32,000 nucleotides of DNA from positions 50,873 to 82,872 of the forward strand of contig NZ_CP104096.1 of NCBI RefSeq assembly GCF_033370915.1. Reading direction: 5' to 3'. A program made the position numbers and the translations under genes. The notes beneath the pieces are model-generated. The model ran no database searches. It saw only the letters and a list, made by a program, of their open reading frames with translations, and was not told where the DNA came from. Source of the stretch: Candidatus Saccharimonadota bacterium. Lineage in GTDB: Bacteria > Bacteroidota > Bacteroidia > Flavobacteriales > Blattabacteriaceae. Below, piece by piece: positions 1,499 to 22,188 of the stretch. Numbering within the stretch: the first letter of the stretch is position 1; every line of letters starts with the position of its first letter.

Positions 1499-4400
1499 TT
1501 ATTTTATAATATCAAAATATATTTTATTATTATTATAACTAATAAAATATTTATTATTAGTATTTTTATAAATTATTTTATTAGTTAATGTTTCTTTACT
1601 AATTATATAATAATATTTTATAAATAATTTTAATATATAATTTTTAATATTTTTATTAATAATTATATTAATTTTATCAGTAAAATAATATTTTTTTTCT
1701 TTTCTTAAAATTTGAATTTTTCTTATAAAATCTCTAATAAAACATTCATTTTTTAAATCATTAGTTATTTTAATATCTAAAATAATTATTATGTTATTAT
1801 TAGAATACATAATAATATTTTTATTTATATTTTCATGTGTTATAAAAATTTCATTTATTTTTATTTTTATTTTATTATTTTTTATATTTAAATATATATA
1901 TTTTTTTTTATTAAATTTTTCAATTTCTTTTTGAGTTAATTGATTTAATAATTTATAAATATTATTAATATTATTTTTATATTTTGGCCCTAATTTTTTA
2001 TAATTTAATTTAATTTTTTTTTTTATATATTTATTAATTTTATTAATATTTATAAAATTAATATTTTTAATATTTACTTCATTATTTAATAAATTTATAA
2101 TTTCTTTATTATTTAAAAATTTTTTATTATGTTTATTTTTTACTATATATACATTATTTAAAGGTTGTCTAACTTTTATATTTTTTTTTTTTCTTAAAGA
2201 TAATATAATACTAGAATATTTTTTAATATATAACATATTATTTTCTATAGATTTATTAATATATTTATTTTTATATTTTGGAAATGATTGTAATATTATA
2301 TTAATTTTATTTTTTTTTTCAATATAATATAATTTTTTATTTAAATATTCCATAACAAATGGAGATATTGGATAAGATATTTTAAATATTTTTTTTAAAC
2401 ATATATATAAAATATTATAAGCTGATATTTTATCATTATCATATTTTTTTTTCCAAAATCTTTTTCTTGATAATCTAATATACCAATTACTTAAATCATT
2501 AATTACAAAATTATATATATTTCTAGCTATATAAGTAATATTATATAATTTATAATATTTATAAGTTTTAAATAATAATTTATTAAGTTTTGATAATATC
2601 CAATAATCAATATACTTTTTTTTATATTTATCTTTAATATTAAAATTATCAATTTTAGAATAATTATAAAAAAATCTAAATATATTATATAAGGTATTAA
2701 AGAATTTATTTTTTATTTTATTAATATTATTAATATTAAATTTTAAGTTTTTCCAAGGTAAATTATTATAAACCATATACCATCTTATACAATCAGGACC
2801 ATATTTTTTAATTATTTTAAATGGATCTATTGTATTTCCTTTACTTTTTGACATTTTTTTACCATTTTTATCTAAAATTATACCTAATGGTAATACATTT
2901 TTATAAGATATAGAATTTGAAATTATAGTAGATATAGTATGTAATGTAAAAAACCATCCTCTTGTTTGATCAATGCCTTCTGTAATAAAATCATATGGTA
3001 ATATAATAGTTTTAGTTTTAAAAGGAAAATAATGTTGAGCATAAGGTGAAACACCTGAATCAAACCATACATCAATTACATCAGGTTCTCTATACATTTT
3101 ATTATTAGTTTTAGAAGATAAAATAATTTTATCAATAAAATGTTTATGTAAATCAATTTTTTTATTTATTTTTAAAGGATTGTTTTTCATAAAACCTAAT
3201 TTTATTGATTTTTTAATTTCTTTATTTAATTCTTTTAAAGAACCTATTACTAAAAATTCTTTTTCATTTTTAGTTCTCCATATTGGTAATGGAGTTCCCC
3301 AAAATCTAGTTCTTGAAATATTCCAATTTTTTATATTTTTTAACCAATTTTTAAATTTATTTTTTATAAAATTAGTAGAACACCAATTAATAGTATTACT
3401 TAATTTGATTAATTTATTTTTTATTTTATTTAAATTTATAAACCATGATTTTATTGGATAATATATAATAGGTTTATTTGTTCTCCAGCAATGTGGATAT
3501 AAATGTTTATATTTTTTTATTTTAAAAATTTTATTTTTTTTTTTTAAATATTTAATTATAATTTTATCAACTGAAAATTTATTATTTTTATAATATTGTT
3601 TTTTTATATATTTGCCACCTAAACCTAATGGTACTTGTTTAATATATTTGCCATTATTATCTACAATATTATAGAAATTATCAATATTATTAATTTTAGC
3701 TATTTCATAATCTTCTTTTCCATAATTTGGGGCTATATGTATAATTCCTGTTCCAAGTTTTTTATTGATAATATTTAAGGTATCATTTATAATTAAAAAA
3801 ATTTTATTTTTATTATTCTTTTTATATAAAGGTTTAAACCATTTTATTAATTGTTTATATTTTAAACCAATTAATTTTTTACCTAAAAATTTTAATAATA
3901 TTTTATATTTTTTATTTTTTAATACTTTTTTAATCGAATATTTAGATAAAATAATATTAATATATTTTAATTCATATATATTATATACTTTTACTAAATA
4001 ATAATACATATCATGTTTTACCAATAAAGCAGAATTAGATGGTAAAGTCCATGGTGTTGTAGTCCAAGCTAATAAATATATTTTATAATAATTAAAAAAT
4101 TTATTATTTTTTAATTCAAATAAAACATATATTGAAAAATCAATAATTTTTTTATGAGTATATGGAAGATTAAGTTCTTGATAACTTATAGGGGTACCTG
4201 CTATAGGTGAATATGGTAATACTTTATATTCTTTATATAATAATTTTTTATTATATATTTTTTTAATTATCCACCAAATACTTTCTATATATTTATTAGA
4301 ATAAGTAATAAAATAATTTTTTTTATTAAAAAAATAACCAATATAATTTGTAAATTTTTTCCATATAATTAAATTTTTTTTTATAAATTTTTTACAATAT

Positions 4401-4720
4401 TTATTGAATAATTTAACAGTAATTTTTTTACCTATATCTTTTTTTTTTATTTTTAATTGTTTTTCTACTTCTATTTCAATAGGTAAACCATGAGTGTCCC
4501 AACCAATTTTATATATTACTTTATAATTATTCATTGTATAAAATCTATATATTATATCTTTAATTATTCTAGCAAATATATGATGTACACCTGGTTTTCC
4601 ATTCATTGAAGGTGGACCATCTAATATAATAAATTGTTTTTTATTTTTTCTATAATAAAATAACAAATTTTTTTTTTTCCATTTATTAAATATTTTTTTA
4701 TAAATTTTATATAAATTCAC
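1499..4720 (-). CDS. ileS: Isoleucyl-tRNA synthetase (type 2); non-ATG start (GTG at 4720 or ATT at 4723)
   Basis: The long ORF carries DGPPSMNGKPGVHHIFAR (HIGH region), KMSKSKGN and editing-domain motifs. The ORF-track start at 4783 reads through tRNA-Glu on the same strand, so it is not real. The first ATG downstream of the tRNA lies inside the catalytic core (SMNG). Confidence 0.9.
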   Translation of the reverse strand: MNLYKIYKKIFNKWKKKNLLFYYRKNKKQFIILDGPPSMNGKPGVHHIFARIIKDIIYRFYTMNNYKVIYKIGWDTHGLPIEIEVEKQLKIKKKDIGKKITVKLFNKYCKKFIKKNLIIWKKFTNYIGYFFNKKNYFITYSNKYIESIWWIIKKIYNKKLLYKEYKVLPYSPIAGTPISYQELNLPYTHKKIIDFSIYVLFELKNNKFFNYYKIYLLAWTTTPWTLPSNSALLVKHDMYYYLVKVYNIYELKYINIILSKYSIKKVLKNKKYKILLKFLGKKLIGLKYKQLIKWFKPLYKKNNKNKIFLIINDTLNIINKKLGTGIIHIAPNYGKEDYEIAKINNIDNFYNIVDNNGKYIKQVPLGLGGKYIKKQYYKNNKFSVDKIIIKYLKKKNKIFKIKKYKHLYPHCWRTNKPIIYYPIKSWFINLNKIKNKLIKLSNTINWCSTNFIKNKFKNWLKNIKNWNISRTRFWGTPLPIWRTKNEKEFLVIGSLKELNKEIKKSIKLGFMKNNPLKINKKIDLHKHFIDKIILSSKTNNKMYREPDVIDVWFDSGVSPYAQHYFPFKTKTIILPYDFITEGIDQTRGWFFTLHTISTIISNSISYKNVLPLGIILDKNGKKMSKSKGNTIDPFKIIKKYGPDCIRWYMVYNNLPWKNLKFNINNINKIKNKFFNTLYNIFRFFYNYSKIDNFNIKDKYKKKYIDYWILSKLNKLLFKTYKYYKLYNITYIARNIYNFVINDLSNWYIRLSRKRFWKKKYDNDKISAYNILYICLKKIFKISYPISPFVMEYLNKKLYYIEKKNKINIILQSFPKYKNKYINKSIENNMLYIKKYSSIILSLRKKKNIKVRQPLNNVYIVKNKHNKKFLNNKEIINLLNNEVNIKNINFININKINKYIKKKIKLNYKKLGPKYKNNINNIYKLLNQLTQKEIEKFNKKKYIYLNIKNNKIKIKINEIFITHENINKNIIMYSNNNIIIILDIKITNDLKNECFIRDFIRKIQILRKEKKYYFTDKINIIINKNIKNYILKLFIKYYYIISKETLTNKIIYKNTNNKYFISYNNNKIYFDIIK

Positions 4721-4725
4721 AATAT

Positions 4726-4797
4726 TAGCCCATAGGGGAATTGAACCCCTCTTTCCAGAATGAAAATCTGACGTCCTAACCAATAGACTAATGGGCT
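4726..4797 (-). tRNA. tRNA-Glu (UUC)
   Basis: The reverse complement is AGCCCATTAGTCTATTGGTTAGGACGTCAGATTTTCATTCTGGAAAGAGGGGTTCAATTCCCCTATGGGCTA. It has acceptor stem AGCCCAT/ATGGGCT, anticodon stem TCAGA/TCTGG and loop TT-TTC-AT. Confidence 0.88.
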
Positions 4798-4962
4798 ATA
4801 GATATATAATATTTAATTTATATATTAATTTATAATATTACAAATTCTATAATTATTATAAAAAATTAATTTAAATAATAAAAATGAATATGAAAAATAT
4901 AAATATTTTTGAATGTAAAAAAAAACATATAATTAAAAAAAATTTTAAAATTTAGTATATTT

Positions 4963-6789
4963 TTATTTAATATATATAATTAAAATATTAATATCAGAAG
5001 GCGTAATACCACTAATTCTAGAAGCTTGACCAATTGAAAAAGGACGATAATAATTTAATTTTTCTTGAGCTTCTTTTGATAAAGAGTTAATTTTAAAATA
5101 ATTAAAATTTTTAGGAATTTTTAAATATTCTAATTTTTTCATTAATTTAACAATTTTTTTTTCTTTTTTTATATAATATTCATATTTAATATAATTAGAA
5201 ATAATATGTTTATATTTAAAAAAATATTTAATATAATTTTTAATAAATTTATTATTTATTAAATTTAAATTTTTTAATATATAATCAATAGTAATTTTAG
5301 GTCTTAATAATAAATTTTTTATATTTATTTTTTTATTATTAAAAATAATAGTTTTATTTTTTATATAATTAATAATTTTTTTAATTACAATTTTTTTTTT
5401 AATTACTTTTTTAAAATATTTTTTTTTTATAAGTCCTAATTTATAACCTTTTTTAGTTAATCTAATATCAGCATTATCTTGTCTTAATAAAATTCTATAT
5501 TCTGCTCTAGAAGTAAATATTCTATAAGGTTCTTTAGTACCTTTATTAACTAAATCATCAATTAAAACACCTATATAACCTTCATTTCTTTTTAATATAA
5601 ATGGTTTTTTAGAATTTATTTTTAAATAAGCATTTATACCAGCCATTAAACCTTGACAAGCAGCTTCTTCATAACCAGTAGTACCATTTATTTGACCAGC
5701 AAAAAATAAATTATTAATTTTTTTTGTTTCTAATGTTAATTTTAATTGTATAGGATTAAAATAATCATATTCTACAGCATAACCATATTGTAGAATTTTA
5801 ACTTTTTCTAAGCCTTTTATTGTTTTTATTGATTTATATTGAATTTTTTTAGGTAAACTAGTAGAAAAACCATTAATATAAATAATATTGCTTTTCCATC
5901 CATCTGGTTCAATAAAAATTTGGTGTTTATTTTTATTTTTAAATTTTAAAACTTTATCTTCAATAGAAGGACAATATCTAGGGCCATTATTATTTATAAT
6001 ACCATTATAAAAAGGAGATTTATGAAGATTATTAATAATTATTTTATGAGTTTTAGGATTAGTAAATGCTATATAACAGTTTTTTTGTTTTTTTAATTTT
6101 TTATTTTTAAAAAATGAAAAATTATTATTATTTTTATCCCCTTTTTGTTTAAATAATTTTTTAAAATTAATAGTTTTTTTTAAAATTCTTGGAGATGTAC
6201 CAGTTTTCATTTTATTATATATAATTCCATGTTTTTTTAATTGTTCACTAATACCTATAGAAGATTTTTCATTTATTCTACCTCCTTTATAAGATTTATT
6301 TCCAATACATATTTTACCATTTAAAAATGTACCATTAGTTAATATTACTGATTTACTAAATATTTTTTTATTATTTTTAGTAATTACACCTAAAATATTT
6401 TTATTTTTTATAATTAATTTTATAACTATATCTTGTAAAATATTTATTTTTTTTTTTTTTAATATTTTTAAAATATTTTTAATATATAATTTTCTATCTA
6501 TTTGTGCTCTTGGACTCCACATTGCTGGTCCTTTAGATTTATTTAACATTCTAAATTGTATCATAGAAGAATCTGCTAATTTTCCCATATAACCTCCTAA
6601 AGCATCAATTTCTCTTACTATTTGACCTTTTCCTATACCCCCAATAGAAGGATTACATGACATTTTTCCGATAGTATTAATATTCATAGTTATTAATAAC
6701 GATTTAGCACCTAAATTATGTGATGCTAATATAGCTTCTATTCCTGAATGTCCACCACCAACTATTATAATATCATATTTATTTATCAT
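4963..6789 (-). CDS. mnmG: tRNA uridine 5-carboxymethylaminomethyl modification enzyme MnmG (GidA)
   Basis: 608 aa with the FAD motif DIIIVGGGHSGIEA, plus GQINGTTGYEEAACQG and the C-terminal GQASRISGITPSDI. Confidence 0.93.
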   Translation of the reverse strand: MINKYDIIIVGGGHSGIEAILASHNLGAKSLLITMNINTIGKMSCNPSIGGIGKGQIVREIDALGGYMGKLADSSMIQFRMLNKSKGPAMWSPRAQIDRKLYIKNILKILKKKKINILQDIVIKLIIKNKNILGVITKNNKKIFSKSVILTNGTFLNGKICIGNKSYKGGRINEKSSIGISEQLKKHGIIYNKMKTGTSPRILKKTINFKKLFKQKGDKNNNNFSFFKNKKLKKQKNCYIAFTNPKTHKIIINNLHKSPFYNGIINNNGPRYCPSIEDKVLKFKNKNKHQIFIEPDGWKSNIIYINGFSTSLPKKIQYKSIKTIKGLEKVKILQYGYAVEYDYFNPIQLKLTLETKKINNLFFAGQINGTTGYEEAACQGLMAGINAYLKINSKKPFILKRNEGYIGVLIDDLVNKGTKEPYRIFTSRAEYRILLRQDNADIRLTKKGYKLGLIKKKYFKKVIKKKIVIKKIINYIKNKTIIFNNKKINIKNLLLRPKITIDYILKNLNLINNKFIKNYIKYFFKYKHIISNYIKYEYYIKKEKKIVKLMKKLEYLKIPKNFNYFKINSLSKEAQEKLNYYRPFSIGQASRISGITPSDINILIIYIK

Positions 6790-9277: not shown

Positions 9278-9662
9278 TGGAGTTGGCGGGATTTGAACCC
9301 GCGTCCATATTAAAATAATTAAATATTATTTACATATTTATCTAATTTTTATAAGATTTTTTTTTATAAATTAGAAAATTAATAAAAAAAATCTTTCTAT
9401 TTTATGTTTATAATATAAAATCTAAAATAGAAAAAATAATTTTATATTTTTGTAAATTATTTATTAAATTTATTAAATTAAATATTTTAATTTAATAAAT
9501 CATCTTGCACTAATTTTATTTAGTAAAGCTATTAAGCAGCAAGATTATAATAATTAGTTTTTCCTTGTATTTATTATAATATTTTTTTAAAGTGTAATAT
9601 TAAAAAACACTATATGAATATTTTAATATATTTTAATATGTCAAAACCAATTTAACAACCCC
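9278..9662 (-). ncRNA. ssrA: tmRNA (SsrA)
   Basis: On the minus strand the 5' end is GGGGTTGTTAAATTGGTTTTGACA. The 3' end is GGACGCGGGTTCAAATCCCGCCAACTCCA, a tRNA-like T-arm plus an acceptor stem complementary to the 5' GGGGTTG. The internal tag frame at 9564-9532 reads GGA AAA ACT AAT TAT TAT AAT CTT GCT GCT TAA, giving GKTNYYNLAA and a stop. Confidence 0.88.
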
Positions 9663-10207: not shown

Positions 10208-10940
10208 TATAATGTATATTGTTTATATTTTTAATATAATTAATTATTTTATTAGATAATATTTTATATTGTCCTTTTTTAAGATTATTATTTATTTTAA
10301 AACCTGCAAAATATATTCTATTTAAAAATAAAACTTTATAACCTATTTTATTAAATATTCTATGTATTATTTTATTCCATCCAACATTTATTGTTATAAT
10401 TAATGTTCTTTTATTATTATTAAAAATTTTTATATTATTTATTTTTATTTTACCTTCTTTCAACTTAATTCCTTTATTTAAAATTAATATATCTGTTTTA
10501 TTAAAATTTTTATTTAAAAAAATTTTATATTTTCTTTTTATTTTATATTTAGGATGAGTTAAATATTGAGCTAATTTACCATCATTAGTTAATAAAATTA
10601 AACCAGTTGTATTTTTATCTAATCTCCCAATGGGAAAAATACCTAATTTTTTGTATATTTTAGGAATAAAATCCATAATAATAATTCTATTTTTATTATC
10701 TTTAACAGTAGTAATACAGTTTTTAGGTTTGTTAAATAAAATATATATTTTGTTTTTTAAATTTAAATTAGAATTTACATATTTTATATTATCATAATAA
10801 TTAACTTTATATCCTAATTTATTAATAATTTTTCCATTTACTGATATTAAACCTATTTTTATAAGTTTATCAGCTTTTCTTCTTGAACATACTCCACTAT
10901 AAGCTATATATTTATTTAATCTAATTCTTTGTTTTATCAT
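10200..10940 (-). CDS. rluB: rRNA pseudouridine synthase, RsuA/RluB family
   Basis: 246 aa with an S4 domain (RLNKYIAYSGVCSRRKADKLI) and the catalytic GRLDKNTTGLILLTNDG motif. I cannot determine the exact paralog (rluB, rsuA or rluF). Confidence 0.75.
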   Translation of the reverse strand: MIKQRIRLNKYIAYSGVCSRRKADKLIKIGLISVNGKIINKLGYKVNYYDNIKYVNSNLNLKNKIYILFNKPKNCITTVKDNKNRIIIMDFIPKIYKKLGIFPIGRLDKNTTGLILLTNDGKLAQYLTHPKYKIKRKYKIFLNKNFNKTDILILNKGIKLKEGKIKINNIKIFNNNKRTLIITINVGWNKIIHRIFNKIGYKVLFLNRIYFAGFKINNNLKKGQYKILSNKIINYIKNINNIHYNE

Positions 10941-11547
10941 ATAAAGATAATATATTTTTAGATTTTAAAATATTATTTAATATACCATTTATAAAATTAA
11001 TATTATTTTTAGAAGAAAAAATTAATATAATTAATTTATATTCATTAATAATAATATTAATATTTATATCTTTATAATAAATAATAAATTCACTAATAGC
11101 AATTTTAATAACAATTAAATCAATAATATTAATTCTAGTAATACTCCAATTTACTAAATAATTATTAATAATGTCAATTAATAGTTTATTATTTTTATTT
11201 ATATAATTTATAATTTTAATAATAAATGAAAAATTATCAAAAATATTAATTAAGATATTATATTTAATTTTTAAAAATAATATATATTTAATAAATTTTT
11301 TGTCTTCATATTGTAATAAAAATATTTCATTTAAATTATTAATATATTTATTAATTGAATTAATAATATTATTTTTATTTAATTTTTTTTTATTTATTTT
11401 AATTAAAATTTTATTAATTACTTTATTTAAATAATTAAAATTATTATTTAAATATTTAAAATAGTTAAATTTTTTATTGTAGTTAATAATAAATAATATT
11501 TTCATTATTTTAATTCTAAAATAATTTTTTATTTTAATAAATTTCAA
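10921..11547 (-). CDS. nusB: Transcription antitermination factor NusB (divergent)
   Basis: 208 aa. The C-terminal INEYKLIILIFSSKNNINFINGILNNIL matches the NusB signature INE-AV-LAK...FVNGVL. The rest is highly degenerate. Confidence 0.6.
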   Translation of the reverse strand: MKFIKIKNYFRIKIMKILFIINYNKKFNYFKYLNNNFNYLNKVINKILIKINKKKLNKNNIINSINKYINNLNEIFLLQYEDKKFIKYILFLKIKYNILINIFDNFSFIIKIINYINKNNKLLIDIINNYLVNWSITRINIIDLIVIKIAISEFIIYYKDININIIINEYKLIILIFSSKNNINFINGILNNILKSKNILSLYDKTKN

Positions 11548-11588
11548 TTAAATTATTATTTATTAATATATAAAAATATAATAAAAAA

Positions 11589-12404
11589 ATGAAAATATAT
11601 AATAATTTTAATAACAAATATCAAGATAAATTTGATAATAAAAACTATAATAATAATATTATTGATAAATATAATATTTTTAATAATAAAAAAGATAAAA
11701 TAGAAAATAAAGATGTTTATAATGACAAATATGAAGATATAATACCAGTTTATAGTAAAAGTTTAAAATCAAGAAAGAAAATATATTATTTTGATGTTTT
11801 AGAAACAATTACAGGGGATTATTTTTTATGCATTACAGAAAGTAAAAAAATATTATTAAAAGATAATAGTAATTTTTTTAAAAAAGAAAAAATTTATATA
11901 TATAAAGAAAATTTAGAAATATTTAAAAAATATTTAGAAAATATTATTGATTTTATATATAGTAAAAAGGGTAAAAAAATAATATATGATAAAGAAATAT
12001 TAAAAAGAAATATTAAATTAATGGAAGAAAAAGAAAAAATTTTTTATAATTATAAAAAAGGTGATTTAGAAGAAAGATTTGAGGAGGAAATAAATCTAAA
12101 AGATAATATAAATACTAAAGATAAAGATATTAAAGATAAAGATAAAGATAAAGATAAAGATAAAGATAATAAAGATAAAGAAGAAGTAGAAGAACAAGAT
12201 AAAAATAATAAAATAACAAAAAACAAAGATAAAAATAATAAAAAAACAAAAAAACAAGATAAAAATAATAAAATAACAAAAAACAAAGATAAAAATAATA
12301 AAAAAACAAAAAAACAAGATAAAAATAATAAAAAAACAAAAAAACAAGATAAAAATAATAAAAAAACAAAAAAACAAGATAAAAATAATAAAAAAACAAA
12401 ATAA
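11589..12404 (+). CDS. PUR-like (DUF3276-type) nucleic-acid-binding protein with a long Lys/Asp-rich tandem-repeat tail
   Basis: Residues ~50-125 (IPVYSKSLKSRKKIYYFDVLETITGDYFLCITESKK...KEKIYIYKENLEIFKKYLENIIDFI) match my recollection of the Bacteroidota DUF3276/PUR pattern (RTYFFDV...DYYLTITESKK...KIFLYKEDFxKF). The C-terminal ~100 aa consist of (KD)n and QDKNNK(K/I)TKK repeats. Confidence 0.7.
   Translation: MKIYNNFNNKYQDKFDNKNYNNNIIDKYNIFNNKKDKIENKDVYNDKYEDIIPVYSKSLKSRKKIYYFDVLETITGDYFLCITESKKILLKDNSNFFKKEKIYIYKENLEIFKKYLENIIDFIYSKKGKKIIYDKEILKRNIKLMEEKEKIFYNYKKGDLEERFEEEINLKDNINTKDKDIKDKDKDKDKDKDNKDKEEVEEQDKNNKITKNKDKNNKKTKKQDKNNKITKNKDKNNKKTKKQDKNNKKTKKQDKNNKKTKKQDKNNKKTK
12117..12180 (+). 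repeat. (GATAAA)n hexanucleotide repeat encoding (DK)n
   Basis: Five perfect GATAAA units lie at 12135-12164, with imperfect units flanking them. The repeat is in frame within the PUR-like CDS. Confidence 0.85.
12195..12400 (+). repeat. Tandem repeat with a 60-nt unit x2 (12195-12254 = 12255-12314), then a 30-nt unit x3
   Basis: The copies are identical at nucleotide level: CAAGATAAAAATAATAAAATAACAAAAAACAAAGATAAAAATAATAAAAAAACAAAAAAA x2, then CAAGATAAAAATAATAAAAAAACAAAAAAA x3 (the last is cut by the stop). They encode QDKNNKITKNKDKNNKKTKK and QDKNNKKTKK. Confidence 0.9.
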
Positions 12405-12426
12405 AAAATAATAATAAATATTTTTT

Positions 12427-15383: not shown

Positions 15384-15385
15384 AT

Positions 15386-15730
15386 AAGTTAATAGTTTTA
15401 TCGCATTAATAAGAATTATATTAATGAGGAAAGTCCGGACACTAAAGAGAAATACAAAGGATAACATCCTTACATCGAAAGATGAGGAATAGTACAACAG
15501 AAAGAAAGTATAATATTAAAATATTATAGTGAAATCATGAAAACTCTGTATAGTGAAATGTTAAATATACCATTTTTATATTTTCTCGATATTTATGGTT
15601 GGTAAACAGATATGATATATATGGTAACATATATACTAGATAAATGATAAAAATATATTATTTTATTTTTTTTTAAAATAATTTTTTTTTAAAAATAATA
15701 TATACAGAATCCGGCTTATATATTAACTTA
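15386..15730 (+). ncRNA. rnpB: RNase P RNA (bacterial type A, reduced)
   Basis: It carries the conserved P4 strands GAGGAAAGTCCGGAC (about 15426-15440) and ACAGAATCCGGCTTA (about 15704-15718). The terminal P1 pairs AAGTTAATA (15387-95) with TATTAACTT (15721-29). GATAACATCC and ACAACAGAAA-type core elements are present. Confidence 0.88.
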
Positions 15731-15740
15731 TAAAAAAAAA

Positions 15741-16222: not shown

Positions 16223-17089
16223 ATGTTAATAAATAATATATTAGATATATTAAAAAATAATAAAGAAGAAAAAAAAATAAAAGAAGAAATAAAAAAAATT
16301 GTAAAAAAAAGAAATATAAAAAAAATAAATAGAAATAAAATAATTAAAATAAAAAATAAAATTATAAAATATAATAAAGAAAAAAAACAAAAAAAAATTT
16401 ATAAAAAGTATAAAAAAAAAGAAGGTAAATTAGTACTTTTAAAAGTAATAAATGAATATAATAATAAATTAATTTTAATAGATAAATATAATAATGAATT
16501 AATATTTAATAAAAAAAATAATTATGAAAAAAAATATATAAAAATAATAAAAAATAATTTATTTATATTTAAAAAAAATAATATATATAATTTTTTAGTA
16601 GATAAAATATTTTATACTAAAAATAAAAAAACAATAATAATATTAAAAAGAAATAATATTTTATTTGTAAAAAAATTATTAAAAAAAGAAATATTAGAAA
16701 TAAAACAAAAAATAGTAAAAATAAAAAAAATAGTAAGAATATCAGGTTTAAAAACAATAATAGTAGTAAAATCAAATAATAAAAATATAAATCCTGTAGG
16801 ATGTTGTATAGGAATTAAAAATATAAGATTAAATAATATAAAAAAAGAATTAAATAATGAAAAAATAGAAATATATAAATATAATAGTAATAAATTAAAA
16901 TATATAAAAGAGATATTTAAAAAAAAAAATATAAAAAAAATAGAAATATTAAATAATTTAATAATATTATATTTTAATAAAAAAACAATAGGAAAAATAA
17001 TAGGAGAAAAAGGATATAATATAAAATTATATTCATTATTATTAAATAATAAAATTATTGTAAAGGAATATGAAAAAAAAAGTAATTGA
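16223..17089 (+). CDS. nusA: Transcription termination/antitermination factor NusA (shortened)
   Basis: 288 aa. ISGLKTIIVVKSNNKNINPVGCCIGIKNIRLNNIKKELNNEKIEIYKY matches the NusA KH1 region (DPVGACVG-KG-RI...EL-GEKIDI). IGKIIGEKGYNIKL is the KH2 GxxG element. Confidence 0.85.
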   Translation: MLINNILDILKNNKEEKKIKEEIKKIVKKRNIKKINRNKIIKIKNKIIKYNKEKKQKKIYKKYKKKEGKLVLLKVINEYNNKLILIDKYNNELIFNKKNNYEKKYIKIIKNNLFIFKKNNIYNFLVDKIFYTKNKKTIIILKRNNILFVKKLLKKEILEIKQKIVKIKKIVRISGLKTIIVVKSNNKNINPVGCCIGIKNIRLNNIKKELNNEKIEIYKYNSNKLKYIKEIFKKKNIKKIEILNNLIILYFNKKTIGKIIGEKGYNIKLYSLLLNNKIIVKEYEKKSN

Positions 17090-18788
17090 AATATATAAAG
17101 ATATAACAATAAATGATTTATCGTTGTTTTTAAATATAAATAATAGTGTAATAATAAATATATGTAAAGATTTAGGATTAATAGTTAATATAAATACAAT
17201 ATTAGATAAAGAATTAATATCATTTATAAGTGATGAATTAGGTTATAAAGTAAAATATTTAGATTCATTATTATTAATAAATAAAGAAAAAGAAATAAGA
17301 GAAAAATATAAAAAAAATATATATATTAAAAGATCTCCTATAGTGTCAATAATAGGTCATGTAAATCATGGCAAAACATCATTTTTAGATTATATAAGAA
17401 AATCAAATATAATATCAAGTGAAGAAGGTAATATTACTCAACATATAGGAATATATAATGTAAATTTAAAAAAAAGTATAAAATTAACATTTATAGATAC
17501 TCCAGGCCATGAATCATTTTTATCAATTAGACGTATAAGTATAAAAATATCAGATATAGCGTTAATAATAATATCATCAGAAAATGGTGTAATGACACAA
17601 ACAATAGAAGCAATATATAATGCAAAATCAGAAAATTTACCAATAATATTAGGAATAAGTAAAATAGATAAAAATAATAATATAAATAAAATAAAAGAAC
17701 AATTATCAAATATTAATATTTTAGTAGATGATTGGGGTGGAGAATATTTATATCAAAAAATATCGGTAAAAAAAGGATATGGAATAAATGAAATAATAGA
17801 AAAAATTTTAAATTTAACAAAAAAAATAAATTTATTTACAAATATAAATAAATTATGTTCAGGAAAAATAATAGATTCATATGTAAATAAAAATAAAGGT
17901 TATATAGTAAAAATATTATTATTAGAAGGAATTTTAAAAAAAGGGGATTATATAATATCTGGTATATATTATGGAAAAATAAAAAAGATAATTGATGAAA
18001 ATAATATTAATATAAATGTAGTATATCCCGGTTTATCAGTTAATATAGTAGGATTTAATGGAGTACCATATACAGGAGATAATTTTAAAGTATTAAAAAA
18101 AGAAAAAGAAATAAAAAGAATAGTAATAGAAAGAGAAAATATTATAAAAGAACAAGAAATAAAAATAAAAAAAATATTATATAAAAAAAATAAAGATATT
18201 AATATAAATAAAAATAAAAAAATTAATATAATATTAAAAGTAGATGTAGAAAATAGTTTATTAGCAATAATAGAAGAAATAAATAAATTAAATATAGAAA
18301 TTAATATAATAAAGAAAAAAGTAGGTAATATAAAATATTCTGATTATTTATTAGCTAAGACATTTAATTGTATAATAATAGGTTTTAATGTAAAAAATAT
18401 TATAAATAAAAAACAAATAAATAATAAAAATATAGAAATATATAATTTAAAATTAATTTATGATATTATAAAAATTTTAATAAATAAAAATGAAAATAAT
18501 AATAAAGAAAATATAAAAATATTAGGAAAAGCAAAAGTAATAAAATTATTTATAAAAGATAAAAAATTAATTATGGGTTGTAAAGTAATAAATGGTAAAA
18601 TAAAAAAAGAAAATAAAATAAAAATAATAAGAAATAACAAAATAATATTAATTAGTGATATTATATCAATAAAAATATTTAATAATAAGGTAAATGAAGT
18701 AAAAAAAAATAATGAATTTGGTTTAATAATAAAAAAAAAAGCAGAAATTAAAATAAATGATATAATAGAAACATATAAAAAAAAATAA
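17070..18788 (+). CDS. infB: Translation initiation factor IF-2 (N-terminal domains reduced)
   Basis: 572 aa with VSIIGHVNHGKTSFLDYIR, DTPGHESF and SKID. The C-terminal domains are present. It overlaps nusA by 20 nt, keeping the conserved nusA-infB order. Confidence 0.92.
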   Translation: MKKKVIEIYKDITINDLSLFLNINNSVIINICKDLGLIVNINTILDKELISFISDELGYKVKYLDSLLLINKEKEIREKYKKNIYIKRSPIVSIIGHVNHGKTSFLDYIRKSNIISSEEGNITQHIGIYNVNLKKSIKLTFIDTPGHESFLSIRRISIKISDIALIIISSENGVMTQTIEAIYNAKSENLPIILGISKIDKNNNINKIKEQLSNINILVDDWGGEYLYQKISVKKGYGINEIIEKILNLTKKINLFTNINKLCSGKIIDSYVNKNKGYIVKILLLEGILKKGDYIISGIYYGKIKKIIDENNININVVYPGLSVNIVGFNGVPYTGDNFKVLKKEKEIKRIVIERENIIKEQEIKIKKILYKKNKDININKNKKINIILKVDVENSLLAIIEEINKLNIEINIIKKKVGNIKYSDYLLAKTFNCIIIGFNVKNIINKKQINNKNIEIYNLKLIYDIIKILINKNENNNKENIKILGKAKVIKLFIKDKKLIMGCKVINGKIKKENKIKIIRNNKIILISDIISIKIFNNKVNEVKKNNEFGLIIKKKAEIKINDIIETYKKK

Positions 18789-18828: not shown

Positions 18829-19440
18829 ATGATAAATATTTTAAAATATATTTTTGATTTATTAATAAAATTAAAAGATTTATTAATAAGAAATTTAATT
18901 AATTTATTTAATTATATGTATTTTAAAAAGGAAAAAATAAAAAATATGTTTAATGAATATTATGAAAAAACAAAAGTCAAATTTTATAACTTTAATGAAA
19001 CAATAAATGATATATTTATCAATGATAATGATAATGATTATAATAAAACAATTAAACCTTATGATTTAATAAACTCAAAGGCTTACAAATACATAAATTA
19101 TAGCCTAAATGATAACGAAAATAGTCTAAAAGAACTAAATGAGATAAATGAAAACGAAAATAAAAAAAATGAGGAAAATAAAAAAATAAAACAAAAAGAA
19201 AAAGAAAAAATAGAAGAAAAAATAAATAAAAAAATAAATAAAAAAATAAATAAAAAAATAAATAAAAAAATAAATAAAAAAATAAATAAAAATATAAAGA
19301 AAAATATAAAGAAAAATATAAAAAAAAAAATAAATGAAAAAATAAATGAAAAAATAAATGAAAATACAACTAAAAATAATGTTAAAAACGAAGTAGCAGA
19401 GGAGGAGGATGATTATAATTCAGATGATTATGTAATGTAG
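18829..19440 (+). CDS. Orphan repeat protein with a hydrophobic N-terminus, (KINK)6(NIKK)3(KINE)3 repeats and an acidic tail; ends at TAG
   Basis: A 203-codon open frame on the A-rich strand with no family I recognise. Its 12-nt tandem repeats are in frame. It has visibly more C/G-ending codons (AAC, AAG, TAC, AGC, GAG) than neighbouring housekeeping genes. Confidence 0.55.
   Translation: MINILKYIFDLLIKLKDLLIRNLINLFNYMYFKKEKIKNMFNEYYEKTKVKFYNFNETINDIFINDNDNDYNKTIKPYDLINSKAYKYINYSLNDNENSLKELNEINENENKKNEENKKIKQKEKEKIEEKINKKINKKINKKINKKINKKINKNIKKNIKKNIKKKINEKINEKINENTTKNNVKNEVAEEEDDYNSDDYVM
19219..19362 (+). repeat. 12-nt periodic tandem repeats: (AAAATAAATAAA)6, (AATATAAAGAAA)3, (AAAATAAATGAA)3
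   Basis: Read directly from the sequence. The repeats are in frame and encode the KINK, NIKK and KINE units. Confidence 0.9.
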
Positions 19441-19506
19441 CACAAGCAGCAGAAGGATGCTACAGCTGCAGCAACAGCTGCAGCTGTAGCTGCAGCTGAA
19501 GCAACA
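19441..19506. repeat. G+C-rich palindromic element with three GCTGCAGC palindromes at 12-nt spacing and potential for a 14-bp perfect stem-loop
   Basis: 36 of 66 nt are G or C, in a roughly 12% G+C background. GCTGCAGC occurs at 19465-72, 19477-84 and 19489-96. 19459-72 is the exact reverse complement of 19477-90, with loop AACA. The function is unknown. Confidence 0.8.
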
Positions 19507-19516
19507 TAATAAAAAA

Positions 19517-20702: not shown

Positions 20703-21695
20703 GTGTTAAATAATTATTATATATCAAGGAAAGATACTATAACAGCAATATCAAGTCCATTAGGAACAGGAGCAATATCAATAATAAGAATATCAGGAAA
20801 AAAATCAATAAAAATTATAAAAAAAATATTAACTAAAAAAAAAATAAAATATAATAAAGTAAATATAGGAATAATATATGATAAAAAAGAAATAATAGAT
20901 AAAGTAATAATAATAATTTATAAAAAACCAAAATCTTATACAGGAGAAAATTTAGTAGAAATAAATTGTCATGGATCAATTTATATACAAAAAAAAATAA
21001 TAAATATAATAATAAAAAATGGAGGAAGATTAGCAAAAAATGGAGAATTTACTTTTAGAGCATATTTAAATAAAAAAATAGATTTATTACAAGCCGAATC
21101 AATATATGATTTAATAAAATCAGAAAATAAAATTTACCATGATATAGCAATAAATAATTTAATATATAATAAATTATCAAAAAATATATTAAAAATACAA
21201 AAAAGTATATTAGATATATTATCTTATATAGAAATAATGTTAGATTTTTCAGAAGAAGATATAAAAATAGATAAAAAAAAAATATATAATAAAATAATAT
21301 ATATAGAAAAGAAAATAAAAAAATTAATAGAATCTTATAAAATAAATAATATAATTAAAGAAGGATTAAATATAGCTATAATTGGACCAGTAAATTCAGG
21401 AAAATCTACATTAATGAATGTATTAATAAAAGAGGAGAAAGCGATAATATCAAAAATTCCAGGAACAACAAGAGATATAGTAGAAGGAAAAATAAAAATA
21501 GAAAAATTAAAATTAAATTTATTTGATACAGCAGGGATAAGAAAAACTAATTCAAAAATAGAAAAAATAGGAATAAAAAAAACATTTAAAAAAATAAAGG
21601 ATACTAATATAATTTTATATGTATTTGATATTTTAAAATTAAAAAATTATTTAAAATTTAAAGAAAAAATAAAAAAATTAAAAAAAAAAATATTT

Positions 21696-21713
<18 letters not shown>
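20703..21713 (+). CDS. mnmE: tRNA modification GTPase MnmE, 5' segment (GTG start; frame ends inside the poly(A) insert)
   Basis: DTITAISSPLGTGAISIIRISG (N-terminal domain), GPVNSGKSTLMN (G1), PGTTRD (G2) and FDTAGIR (G3). The frame stops at 21711-13, before G4 and G5. Confidence 0.85.
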
Positions 21714-21837
<124 letters not shown>

Positions 21838-21852
<15 letters not shown>

Positions 21853-22188
21853 AATAAAAAAAAAATTATAAATTATAATATAATATTAATATCAGCAAAA
21901 AAAAAGAAAGGAATTAAAAAGATATATAAAAATTTATATAAAATAATCCCAAAAAAAGAAATAAAAAATAATAATTTTATAAATAATTTAAGACATTATG
22001 AAGAATTAAAAAAAAGTTTAAAATATATTAAAAAATTTAAAAAAGATTATTTAAAAAAAATACCTTATGAATTTATTACAATAGATTTAAAATTATCTTT
22101 AAAACATTTATATAATATAAATGGAAATAATTTAACTTATAATGAAATATTAGATAATATTTTTTCTAAATTTTGTATAGGGAAATAA
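21838..22188 (+). CDS. mnmE: MnmE 3' segment (no start codon; +1 frame relative to the 5' segment)
   Basis: My manual translation gives KKKIFNKKKIINYNIILISAKKKKGIKK...NNLRHYEELKKSL...YEFITIDLKLSLKHLYNINGNNLTYNEILDNIFSKFCIGK and a stop. It contains the G4-like NKKK, the G5 SAK and the diagnostic C-terminal FCIGK. There is no Met anywhere in the segment. Confidence 0.85.

Follow-up and report, generated by a model that had tools for sequence, protein, structure and literature searches.

Candidate slippage origin of a G+C-rich, in-frame alanine-codon repeat between infB and rng in an A+T-rich Shikimatogenerans genome

Introduction

How does a short segment that is more than half G+C come to lie directly upstream of an RNase E/G gene in a genome of about 14% G+C, and does it have a function there? 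The question is raised by a 32-kb stretch of DNA (the window, to which all coordinates refer unless another genome is named) that belongs to the genome, ~160 kb in size, of Candidatus Shikimatogenerans bostrichidophilus. This endosymbiont is a member of the Bacteroidota and lives in bostrichid beetles. The initial annotation of the window described a G+C island with regularly spaced palindromes behind the TAG stop of an orphan ORF, and proposed that it might be a structured RNA in the leader of rng, an Ala-rich C-terminal tail of the ORF, or a series of sites bound or modified by a dimeric DNA-binding protein. The reading that we favor, with a probability of roughly 0.55, is that the island is a young, strain-specific CAG/GCW repeat generated by slippage, which now forms the Ala-rich and no longer translated tail of an ORF, lineage-specific or in decay, in the slot formerly occupied by hup, its palindromes being a by-product of the repeat.

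Composition of the window and its genome

The G+C content of the window is 13.9%. Its infB gene is 86% identical to that of CP104094, and the clade to which it belongs consists of three genomes of 152–160 kb. Published genomes of the Shikimatogenerans symbiont measure 173–200 kb at ~15% G+C (PMC10284843); a literature search for the CP10409x assemblies, which represent the clade of the window, found no paper. Within the window, 36 of the 66 nucleotides at 19441–19506 are G or C, exactly as first counted, and this segment, which had been considered neither tRNA nor rRNA, has no tRNA, tmRNA or Rfam match. All other 66-nt stretches of the window with at least 40% G+C are tRNA genes, leaving the island as the sole non-tRNA case. 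Neither the tmRNA gene predicted by ARAGORN at 9278–9662 (tag GKTNYYNLAA) nor the RNase P RNA (class A, 116.6 bits) at 15385–15734 contains a 66-nt stretch that reaches 40% G+C, which makes the composition of the island unusual even among structured RNAs of the same window. ARAGORN reported nothing at the island, and a tmRNA or second tag-coding element was therefore rejected.

Other repetitive sequences were observed in the same window. The mnmE gene (20703–22188) is interrupted by near-pure poly(A) of ~200 nt at 21660–21865, and the ORF, which is annotated as MnmE (WOX79460.1), stops at 21713 after 336 aa, compared with 461 aa in the sister genomes; the poly(A) either reflects a problem of the assembly or is a genuine expansion of the homopolymer, in which case slippage might rescue the gene. 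At 12193–12417, mostly within the ORF 11574–12404, there is a 30-nt tandem repeat (AACAAGATAAAAATAATAAAAAAACAAAAA) of 7.5 copies with 92% identity, preceded by (AAAGAT)n. Among the related genomes, CP099828.1 (L015) has infB (1508–3210) and rng (3682–5089) each split into two ORFs that are broken at long A-runs, which is consistent with homopolymer frameshifts being common in Shikimatogenerans genomes. The tandem repeats outside the island and the 200-nt poly(A) within conserved genes show that the genome of the window is prone to slippage.

Repeat anatomy of the island

The features of the locus are collected in Table 1. In the frame of the orphan ORF, the tract comprises the codons TAG CAC AAG CAG CAG AAG, a single GAT, four 12-nt units (GCT ACA GCT GCA, GCA ACA GCT GCA, GCT GTA GCT GCA and GCT GAA GCA ACA) and the double stop TAA TAA. 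Each of the first six codons is at most one change away from CAG, which identifies this part as a degenerate (CAG)6, and the stop TAG is itself one C-to-T step from CAG. Likewise, ACA, GTA, GAA and GAT are single-step G/C-to-A/T derivatives of GCA and GCT. TRF describes the core as (GCTGCA)x7.3 with a period of 6 and 78% matches at 19459–19502. The high G+C content of the island results from its alanine codons, in which the first two positions are necessarily G and C. As in tandem coding repeats, the units stand head to tail, their length is a multiple of three, and they are in frame with the ORF 18829–19440, though located after its TAG.

Table 1. Features of the infB–rng locus in the window
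Feature	Coordinates	Strand	Basis
infB (IF-2), conserved upstream neighbor	17070–18788	+	Pfam GTP_EFTU, IF-2, IF2_N
Orphan ORF, 203 codons, stop TAG	18829–19440	+	ORF list; occupies the hup (HU) slot of other Shikimatogenerans genomes
A+T-only 12-nt tandem array (KINK, NIKK, KINE), ~17 copies, inside the orphan ORF	19146–19376	+	TRF period 12, 16.8–17.6 copies
(GAG)3 purine triplet run (EEE), non-native G-ending codons	19399–19407	+	P(GAG x3) ~2.8e-5
Degenerate (CAG)6: TAG CAC AAG CAG CAG AAG; stop TAG at 19438–40	19438–19455	+	Sequence
Island core, 16 GCW-type codons in four 12-nt units, encodes ATAAATAAAVAAAEAT	19459–19506	+	TRF (GCTGCA)x7.3; direct-repeat family D13, 12-nt spacing; phase table
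Imperfect palindrome, 46 nt	19458–19503		Inverted repeat I3, 24-nt arms, 92% complementary
Double stop TAA TAA at the end of the Ala-rich frame; the rng ATG follows after 4 nt	19507–19512	+	Sequence
rng, RNase E/G family, 353 aa	19517–20578	+	Pfam RNase_E_G 2.8e-51; exact match to NCBI WOX79459.1

The description of the repeats in the initial annotation proved accurate. The motif GCTGCAGC occurs three times at distances of 12 nt (starts at 19465, 19477 and 19489), its second and third copies extend to AGCTGCAGCT (starts at 19476 and 19488), positions 19474–87 form a perfect 14-bp palindrome, and 19459–72 is the exact reverse complement of 19477–90. Continued in frame beyond the TAG (19438–40), the sequence reads as had been translated, HKQQKDATAAATAAAVAAAEAT followed by two stops, and its Ala-rich tail carries the peptide DATAAATAAAVAAAEAT; from GAT onward, A or T occupies the third position in 17 of 17 codons. 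The assignment of the downstream gene to the RNase E/G family is borne out by Pfam (2.8e-51). The remark that TAG is exceptional as a stop holds in part: it is rare but not unique, the long K-rich ORFs of the window ending in TAA (23), TGA (3) or TAG (2).

When the window was searched with up to one mismatch, GCTGCAGC gave six matches compared with 0.06 expected; CTGCAG was found three times (0.07 expected) and CAGCTG four times (0.10 expected), all of them within the island. Such regularly spaced sites, far above chance in number, speak for the proposed array of binding or modification sites, which might serve a dimeric DNA-binding protein or a restriction-modification system. However, the reverse complement of GCTGCA is TGCAGC, a rotation of GCTGCA itself, so that runs of GCTGCA are palindromic and carry CTGCAG and CAGCTG at regular intervals; the palindromes are for the most part a consequence of the unit and do not count as evidence in their own right. 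Moreover, the motifs are confined to 19459–19502 within the 32-kb window and absent from ~90 kb of related loci, which also speaks against a dispersed palindromic (REP-like) or binding-site family, and a genome of ~160 kb contains very few DNA-binding proteins and has lost its local hup. We therefore regard a site array as highly improbable. An origin of the island as a copy of other sequence in the window or in the related loci was rejected as well, since the search returned no match and no source for a G+C-rich seed.

A common periodicity was observed for the island and the repeats that precede it. Across 19219–19506, the A+T-only KINK/NIKK/KINE units and the G+C-rich units stand in a common 12-nt phase, in which the ATA codon of the former is aligned with ACA, ACA, GTA and GAA of the latter. 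Both kinds of units have the third-position pattern A-A-T-A, and an intermediate unit, AAT ACA ACT AAA, is located at 19363. Judging from this pattern, for which the statistics are weak, the KINK array and the island could belong to a single array, the parts of which have decayed toward A+T to different degrees.

The infB–rng interval in related genomes

The infB–rng interval was compared with that of ten other Shikimatogenerans genomes. The ancestral gene order, retained in CP099827 and CP099828, is infB, hup (encoding HU of 95–96 aa, PF00216), a gene for a 30-aa basic peptide (MPNGRKRKRKKIATHKRKK...) and rng. In AP026967 (L018), a 55-aa HU remnant accompanies the peptide gene, and in five genomes the peptide gene alone is found in the spacer. 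JAMYEV010000010.1 (L024) possesses at 1735–2325 a 196-aa ORF in the hup slot, the N-terminal half of which is HU-derived (score 83, compared with a shuffle maximum of 61), whereas the C-terminal half is an 18-nt tandem repeat (ENIESK/ENIDSK). It represents a remodelled HU gene and a parallel to the orphan ORF of the window. Within the clade of the window, both hup and the 30-aa peptide gene are gone. The infB–rng spacer of the sister genome CP104094 is 42 bp long; that of CP104095 is 406 bp at 5.9% G+C, and has in common with the window only the first 150–200 nt, corresponding to the 5' end of the ORF, and a 12-nt A+T repeat.

Neither a G+C island nor the hexamer GCTGCA was found in the spacers of the ten relatives, where the maximum G+C fraction over 66 nt is 0.10–0.32 compared with 0.56 in the window. 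The presence of the tract is thus polymorphic, as for tandem repeats, the island being missing in the two sister genomes as well as in the other eight relatives. The related infB–rng intervals had been named as the test for a conserved element, and this idea loses support with the absence from 10 of 10 relatives; none of the ten orthologous upstream regions contains an element comparable to a conserved cis-regulatory RNA of rng.

The 30-aa peptide gene of the ancestral order (MPNGRKRKRKKIATHKRKKRRRRNRHKKKK; 3574–3666 in L015) encodes a highly basic product and is conserved immediately before rng in 7 of the 11 Shikimatogenerans genomes, being missing from the slot in the window, L001, L014 and L024. 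It is often unannotated and has a weak match to COX24_C (E 0.31); presumably, the peptide resembles the small AURKAIP1/COX24-like ribosomal peptide of Bacteroidota. Derivation of the island from this gene of the same position was rejected, as there is no significant similarity between them.

The orphan ORF upstream of the island

The non-repeat 5' part of the orphan ORF is open for 125 codons, compared with a maximum of 73 in 2000 dinucleotide shuffles (0/2000), and its 3' half is mostly made up of tandem repeats. The ORF is, or recently was, a real reading frame. Its N-terminus is homologous to a 43-aa remnant in L014, and in the two sister genomes the ORF has either decayed or been deleted. 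Database searches with the ORF gave no Pfam or NCBIfam match, no homologues among 5.8e9 clustered proteins and only low-complexity Lys-rich matches among 1.8e9 representatives, and the NCBI protein set does not contain its exact sequence. The AF2 single-sequence model consists of just two long helices (pLDDT 80, pTM 0.31). A diverged HU (PF00216) was rejected as an identification, since hhalign against the Shikimatogenerans HU profile gave a probability of 0.15–0.3% and the Smith-Waterman alignment was not significant. HU ancestry is plausible from the position of the ORF and from its MINI-KY start, which is the same as in L024, though not demonstrable by sequence.

With a 125-codon part that is open beyond chance, the gene, and possibly its tail, may be under selection now or may have been so formerly. 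In a more far-reaching reading, the orphan ORF together with the Ala-rich tail could represent a recently born or acquired gene, either hup remodelled into an H1-like protein of Lys/Ala tetrapeptide repeats or foreign host DNA, with the island selected as protein or as a hairpin that gates rng. We consider this latter reading decidedly unlikely.

Codon usage and the age of the island

Native codon usage was derived from 23 genes (9188 codons), in which Ala accounts for 1.36% of residues and GC3 is ~3–6%; the densest 17-aa stretch in these genes contains four Ala. CAG represents 1 of 135 Gln codons, and AAG, GAG and CAC are used at 2.5%, 3% (of Glu) and 6%, respectively. Under this usage, the run CAC AAG CAG CAG AAG has a P of ~2e-9, and the GAG GAG GAG located just upstream has a P of ~3e-5. 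Since A would be expected at those sites after long in-frame translation under the mutation bias, the stretch is either young or not read in this frame. With the frame shifted by 2 nt from 19440, the same stretch reads GCA CAA GCA GCA GAA GGA, all of them preferred codons; judged from the sequence, a 1-nt phase slip near 19458 would be an alternative history for the TAG. Under either history, the non-native codons contradict the view that the island has to be old and kept up by selection. The premise that a G+C island should persist in such a genome only under selection is therefore not sustained, given the absence of the island from 10 of 10 relatives and its 5' codons, which this genome almost never uses and which point to a young sequence.

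The G-ending codons alien to native usage, together with the uniqueness of the island to this genome, might also be expected of an assembly or sequence artefact or of foreign DNA that was inserted recently, its source being the host or a co-symbiont. Coding DNA of insects often contains CAG/GCA repeats, and the same assembly contains the suspicious 200-nt poly(A) inside mnmE. Against such an origin, the tract has the appearance of a native gene end, being in frame with A or T at 17 of 17 third positions and closed by TAA TAA 4 nt before the rng ATG, and its G+C content rises gradually from ~19387, with typical A+T-rich codons interleaved, as seen in the phase table. In addition, a search of the JGI metagenomes for the exact 38-nt core found nothing. 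Taken together, these features render an artefact or foreign insertion improbable.

Among the three initial proposals, the Ala-rich C-terminal tail fits best, in the sense of an in-frame tail that has been cut off by a stop; its expression by read-through, also part of the proposal, is much less likely. Production of a 225-aa protein by TAG read-through, ribosomal frameshifting or transcriptional slippage would agree with an in-frame tail whose codons from GAT on are the preferred ones ending in A or T, which ends in a double TAA and which follows an ORF that is itself non-random; reduced symbionts are known to rescue genes by polymerase slippage at A-runs. However, TAG also terminates at least one other ordinary-looking K-rich ORF of the window (10921–11547), no suppressor tRNA with a CUA anticodon is present among the seven tRNAs of the 32-kb window, neither a read-through context nor a slippery site is evident, and the ORF is not conserved in the sister genomes. 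Current expression of the tail thus seems quite improbable.

Predicted RNA structure of the island

The island is predicted to fold into a very stable hairpin. In one alternative register, 19459–72 pairs with 19477–90 in a perfect 14-bp stem with the loop AACA. The minimum free energy (MFE) predicted for the hairpin RNA is -35.7 to -35.9 kcal/mol (z -4.1), and in a wider context it reaches -43.4 kcal/mol (z -5.3). When the same peptide was encoded with random A/T-ending codons, the mean MFE was -30.6 kcal/mol and 276 of 3000 recodings (9%) were at least as stable as the observed sequence; pure (GCTGCA)8 has an MFE of -46.6 kcal/mol. The recodings and the fold of the pure repeat indicate that the structure mostly follows from the encoded peptide. 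After permutation of the codons of the core, only 33 of 3000 sequences (~1%) fold as stably and the other 99% are weaker; the ACA and GTA variants are complementary to each other in both hairpin registers. Palindrome-templated events or selection may contribute to the arrangement of codons in the core.

A classical intrinsic terminator had been discounted on the ground that no T-tract follows the stem, and this was confirmed. Of the two hallmarks of such terminators, the G+C-rich stem-loop is present, with its 14-bp perfect stem, but the U/T-tract is not: the sequence 3' of the stem is AACATAATAAAAAAATG, and no terminator-like site was recognized on either strand. Searches with the Rfam covariance models gave no match at the island at the gathering score, the rne 5'UTR family included, and the signal recognition particle RNA was rejected along with other Rfam RNAs. 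At E<=10, the only matches were sub-threshold miRNA-like hairpins, symmetric on both strands.

A functional RNA hairpin in the infB–ORF–rng transcript could act in 3'-end protection of the upstream mRNA, as a processing site (e.g., for RNase III or RNase G), or as a throttle on rng translation. Its very stable stem ends 13 nt before the rng start codon, in the most G+C-rich non-tRNA stretch of the window, and both its z scores and the rarity of equally stable codon permutations argue for it, as does the mutual pairing of the ACA and GTA variants in both registers. On the other hand, none of the ten relatives (0/10) possesses a hairpin or G+C island upstream of rng, and the sister genome CP104094 manages with just 42 A+T-rich bases before rng. 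There is also no U-tract and no match to Rfam families, among them rne 5'UTR; the stability is ordinary given the encoded peptide; and the strict period-3 pattern of A/T is unnecessary for a hairpin. The proposal of a hairpin in the rng leader is thus left with no conservation, no Rfam match and no excess stability at fixed peptide, and we consider a function of this kind unlikely.

Possible origin of the island and its significance

The scenario that we propose combines slippage with the loss of hup. Replication slippage would have built a CAG/CTG-GCW tract at the 3' end of a lineage-specific, repeat-rich ORF, which fills the slot between infB and rng that was formerly occupied by hup (HU) and the basic-peptide gene. 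Being in the frame of this ORF, the tract would have formed an Ala-rich tail composed of the Ala, Thr, Val and Glu codons ending in A or T that the genome prefers. The tail would then have been cut off by the TAG, which may have originated either by a C-to-T change of a CAG inside the (CAG)6 or by the 1-nt phase slip. The strong hairpin and the palindromes would arise from the self-complementarity of GCTGCA. The anatomy of the tract, its uniqueness and absence from relatives, its non-native codons and the dependence of the hairpin on the encoded peptide are direct observations; from these we infer the origin by slippage, the young age of the island and the history of its TAG.

Under the slippage scenario, the island would be nothing more than repeat slippage ordinarily yields. 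Even so, it would serve as a useful marker, showing that a genome of 14% G+C can gain a G+C-rich segment and keep it for a while in the absence of selection. Only a functional hairpin or tail would give it greater weight. The fates of the hup slot across the Shikimatogenerans lineages, which include an intact HU, a 55-aa remnant, a fusion of HU with a repeat, an orphan ORF and full deletion, illustrate on a small scale how a gene dies, and perhaps how an ORF is born, in a minimal genome. Should the reading as a newborn or acquired gene be true, it would represent a gene gain in a symbiont genome that is otherwise only losing genes.

Comparison with known systems

Intrinsic terminators, 3' stabilizer hairpins and the 5'UTR hairpin of E. 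coli rne resemble the island in being G+C-rich stem-loops, and the island is likewise located between two genes, directly upstream of an RNase E/G gene. In contrast to the terminators and the rne hairpin, it has no U-tract, has no Rfam match and recurs in no relative; and whereas regulatory hairpins are imperfect, its stem is a perfect palindrome derived from a repeat.

At the protein level, Lys/Ala-rich tetrapeptide repeats are characteristic of nucleoid proteins with histone H1-like tails, e.g., the C-terminus of mycobacterial HupB, Chlamydia Hc1/Hc2 and Pseudomonas AlgP. The frame in the window similarly has Lys-rich repeats with a 4-aa period followed by Ala-rich repeats with the same period, and it stands in the HU slot; the K, I and N codons (AAA, ATA and AAT) correspond to fully A+T-converted GCA and GCT in the same 12-nt phase. 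However, no homology to these proteins was detected and the sister genomes lack the ORF, so the likeness is an analogy and a lead only.

Closer in position are the decaying or remodelled hup genes of the relatives, e.g., the ORF of L024 (196 aa), which joins HU to a repeat, and the HU remnant of 55 aa in AP026967; they share their genomic slot with the ORF of the window. The L024 ORF and the window ORF both start with MINI-KY and both have a C-terminal half composed of tandem repeats. They differ in their repeat units; HU ancestry is not demonstrable for the window ORF, and the G+C-rich, Ala-rich tract is found in the window only.

The best counterparts of the island are in-frame coding microsatellites, such as the low-complexity regions in the proteins of A+T-rich Plasmodium and the CAG/CTG and GCN poly-Ala tracts, with which it shares head-to-tail units of 3, 6 or 12 nt that carry point variants and keep the frame. 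Like CAG/CTG triplet-repeat tracts, it is self-complementary, hairpin-forming and lineage-specific, and is flanked by tandem repeats in the same ORF. Unlike the known coding microsatellites, it resides in a ~160-kb symbiont genome of 14% G+C, where it is G+C-rich against the mutation bias, and it follows a stop codon and is probably untranslated now. As a simple repeat in the frame of an orphan ORF, the island adds one more case to a familiar kind of sequence, and only its composition within this genome sets it apart.
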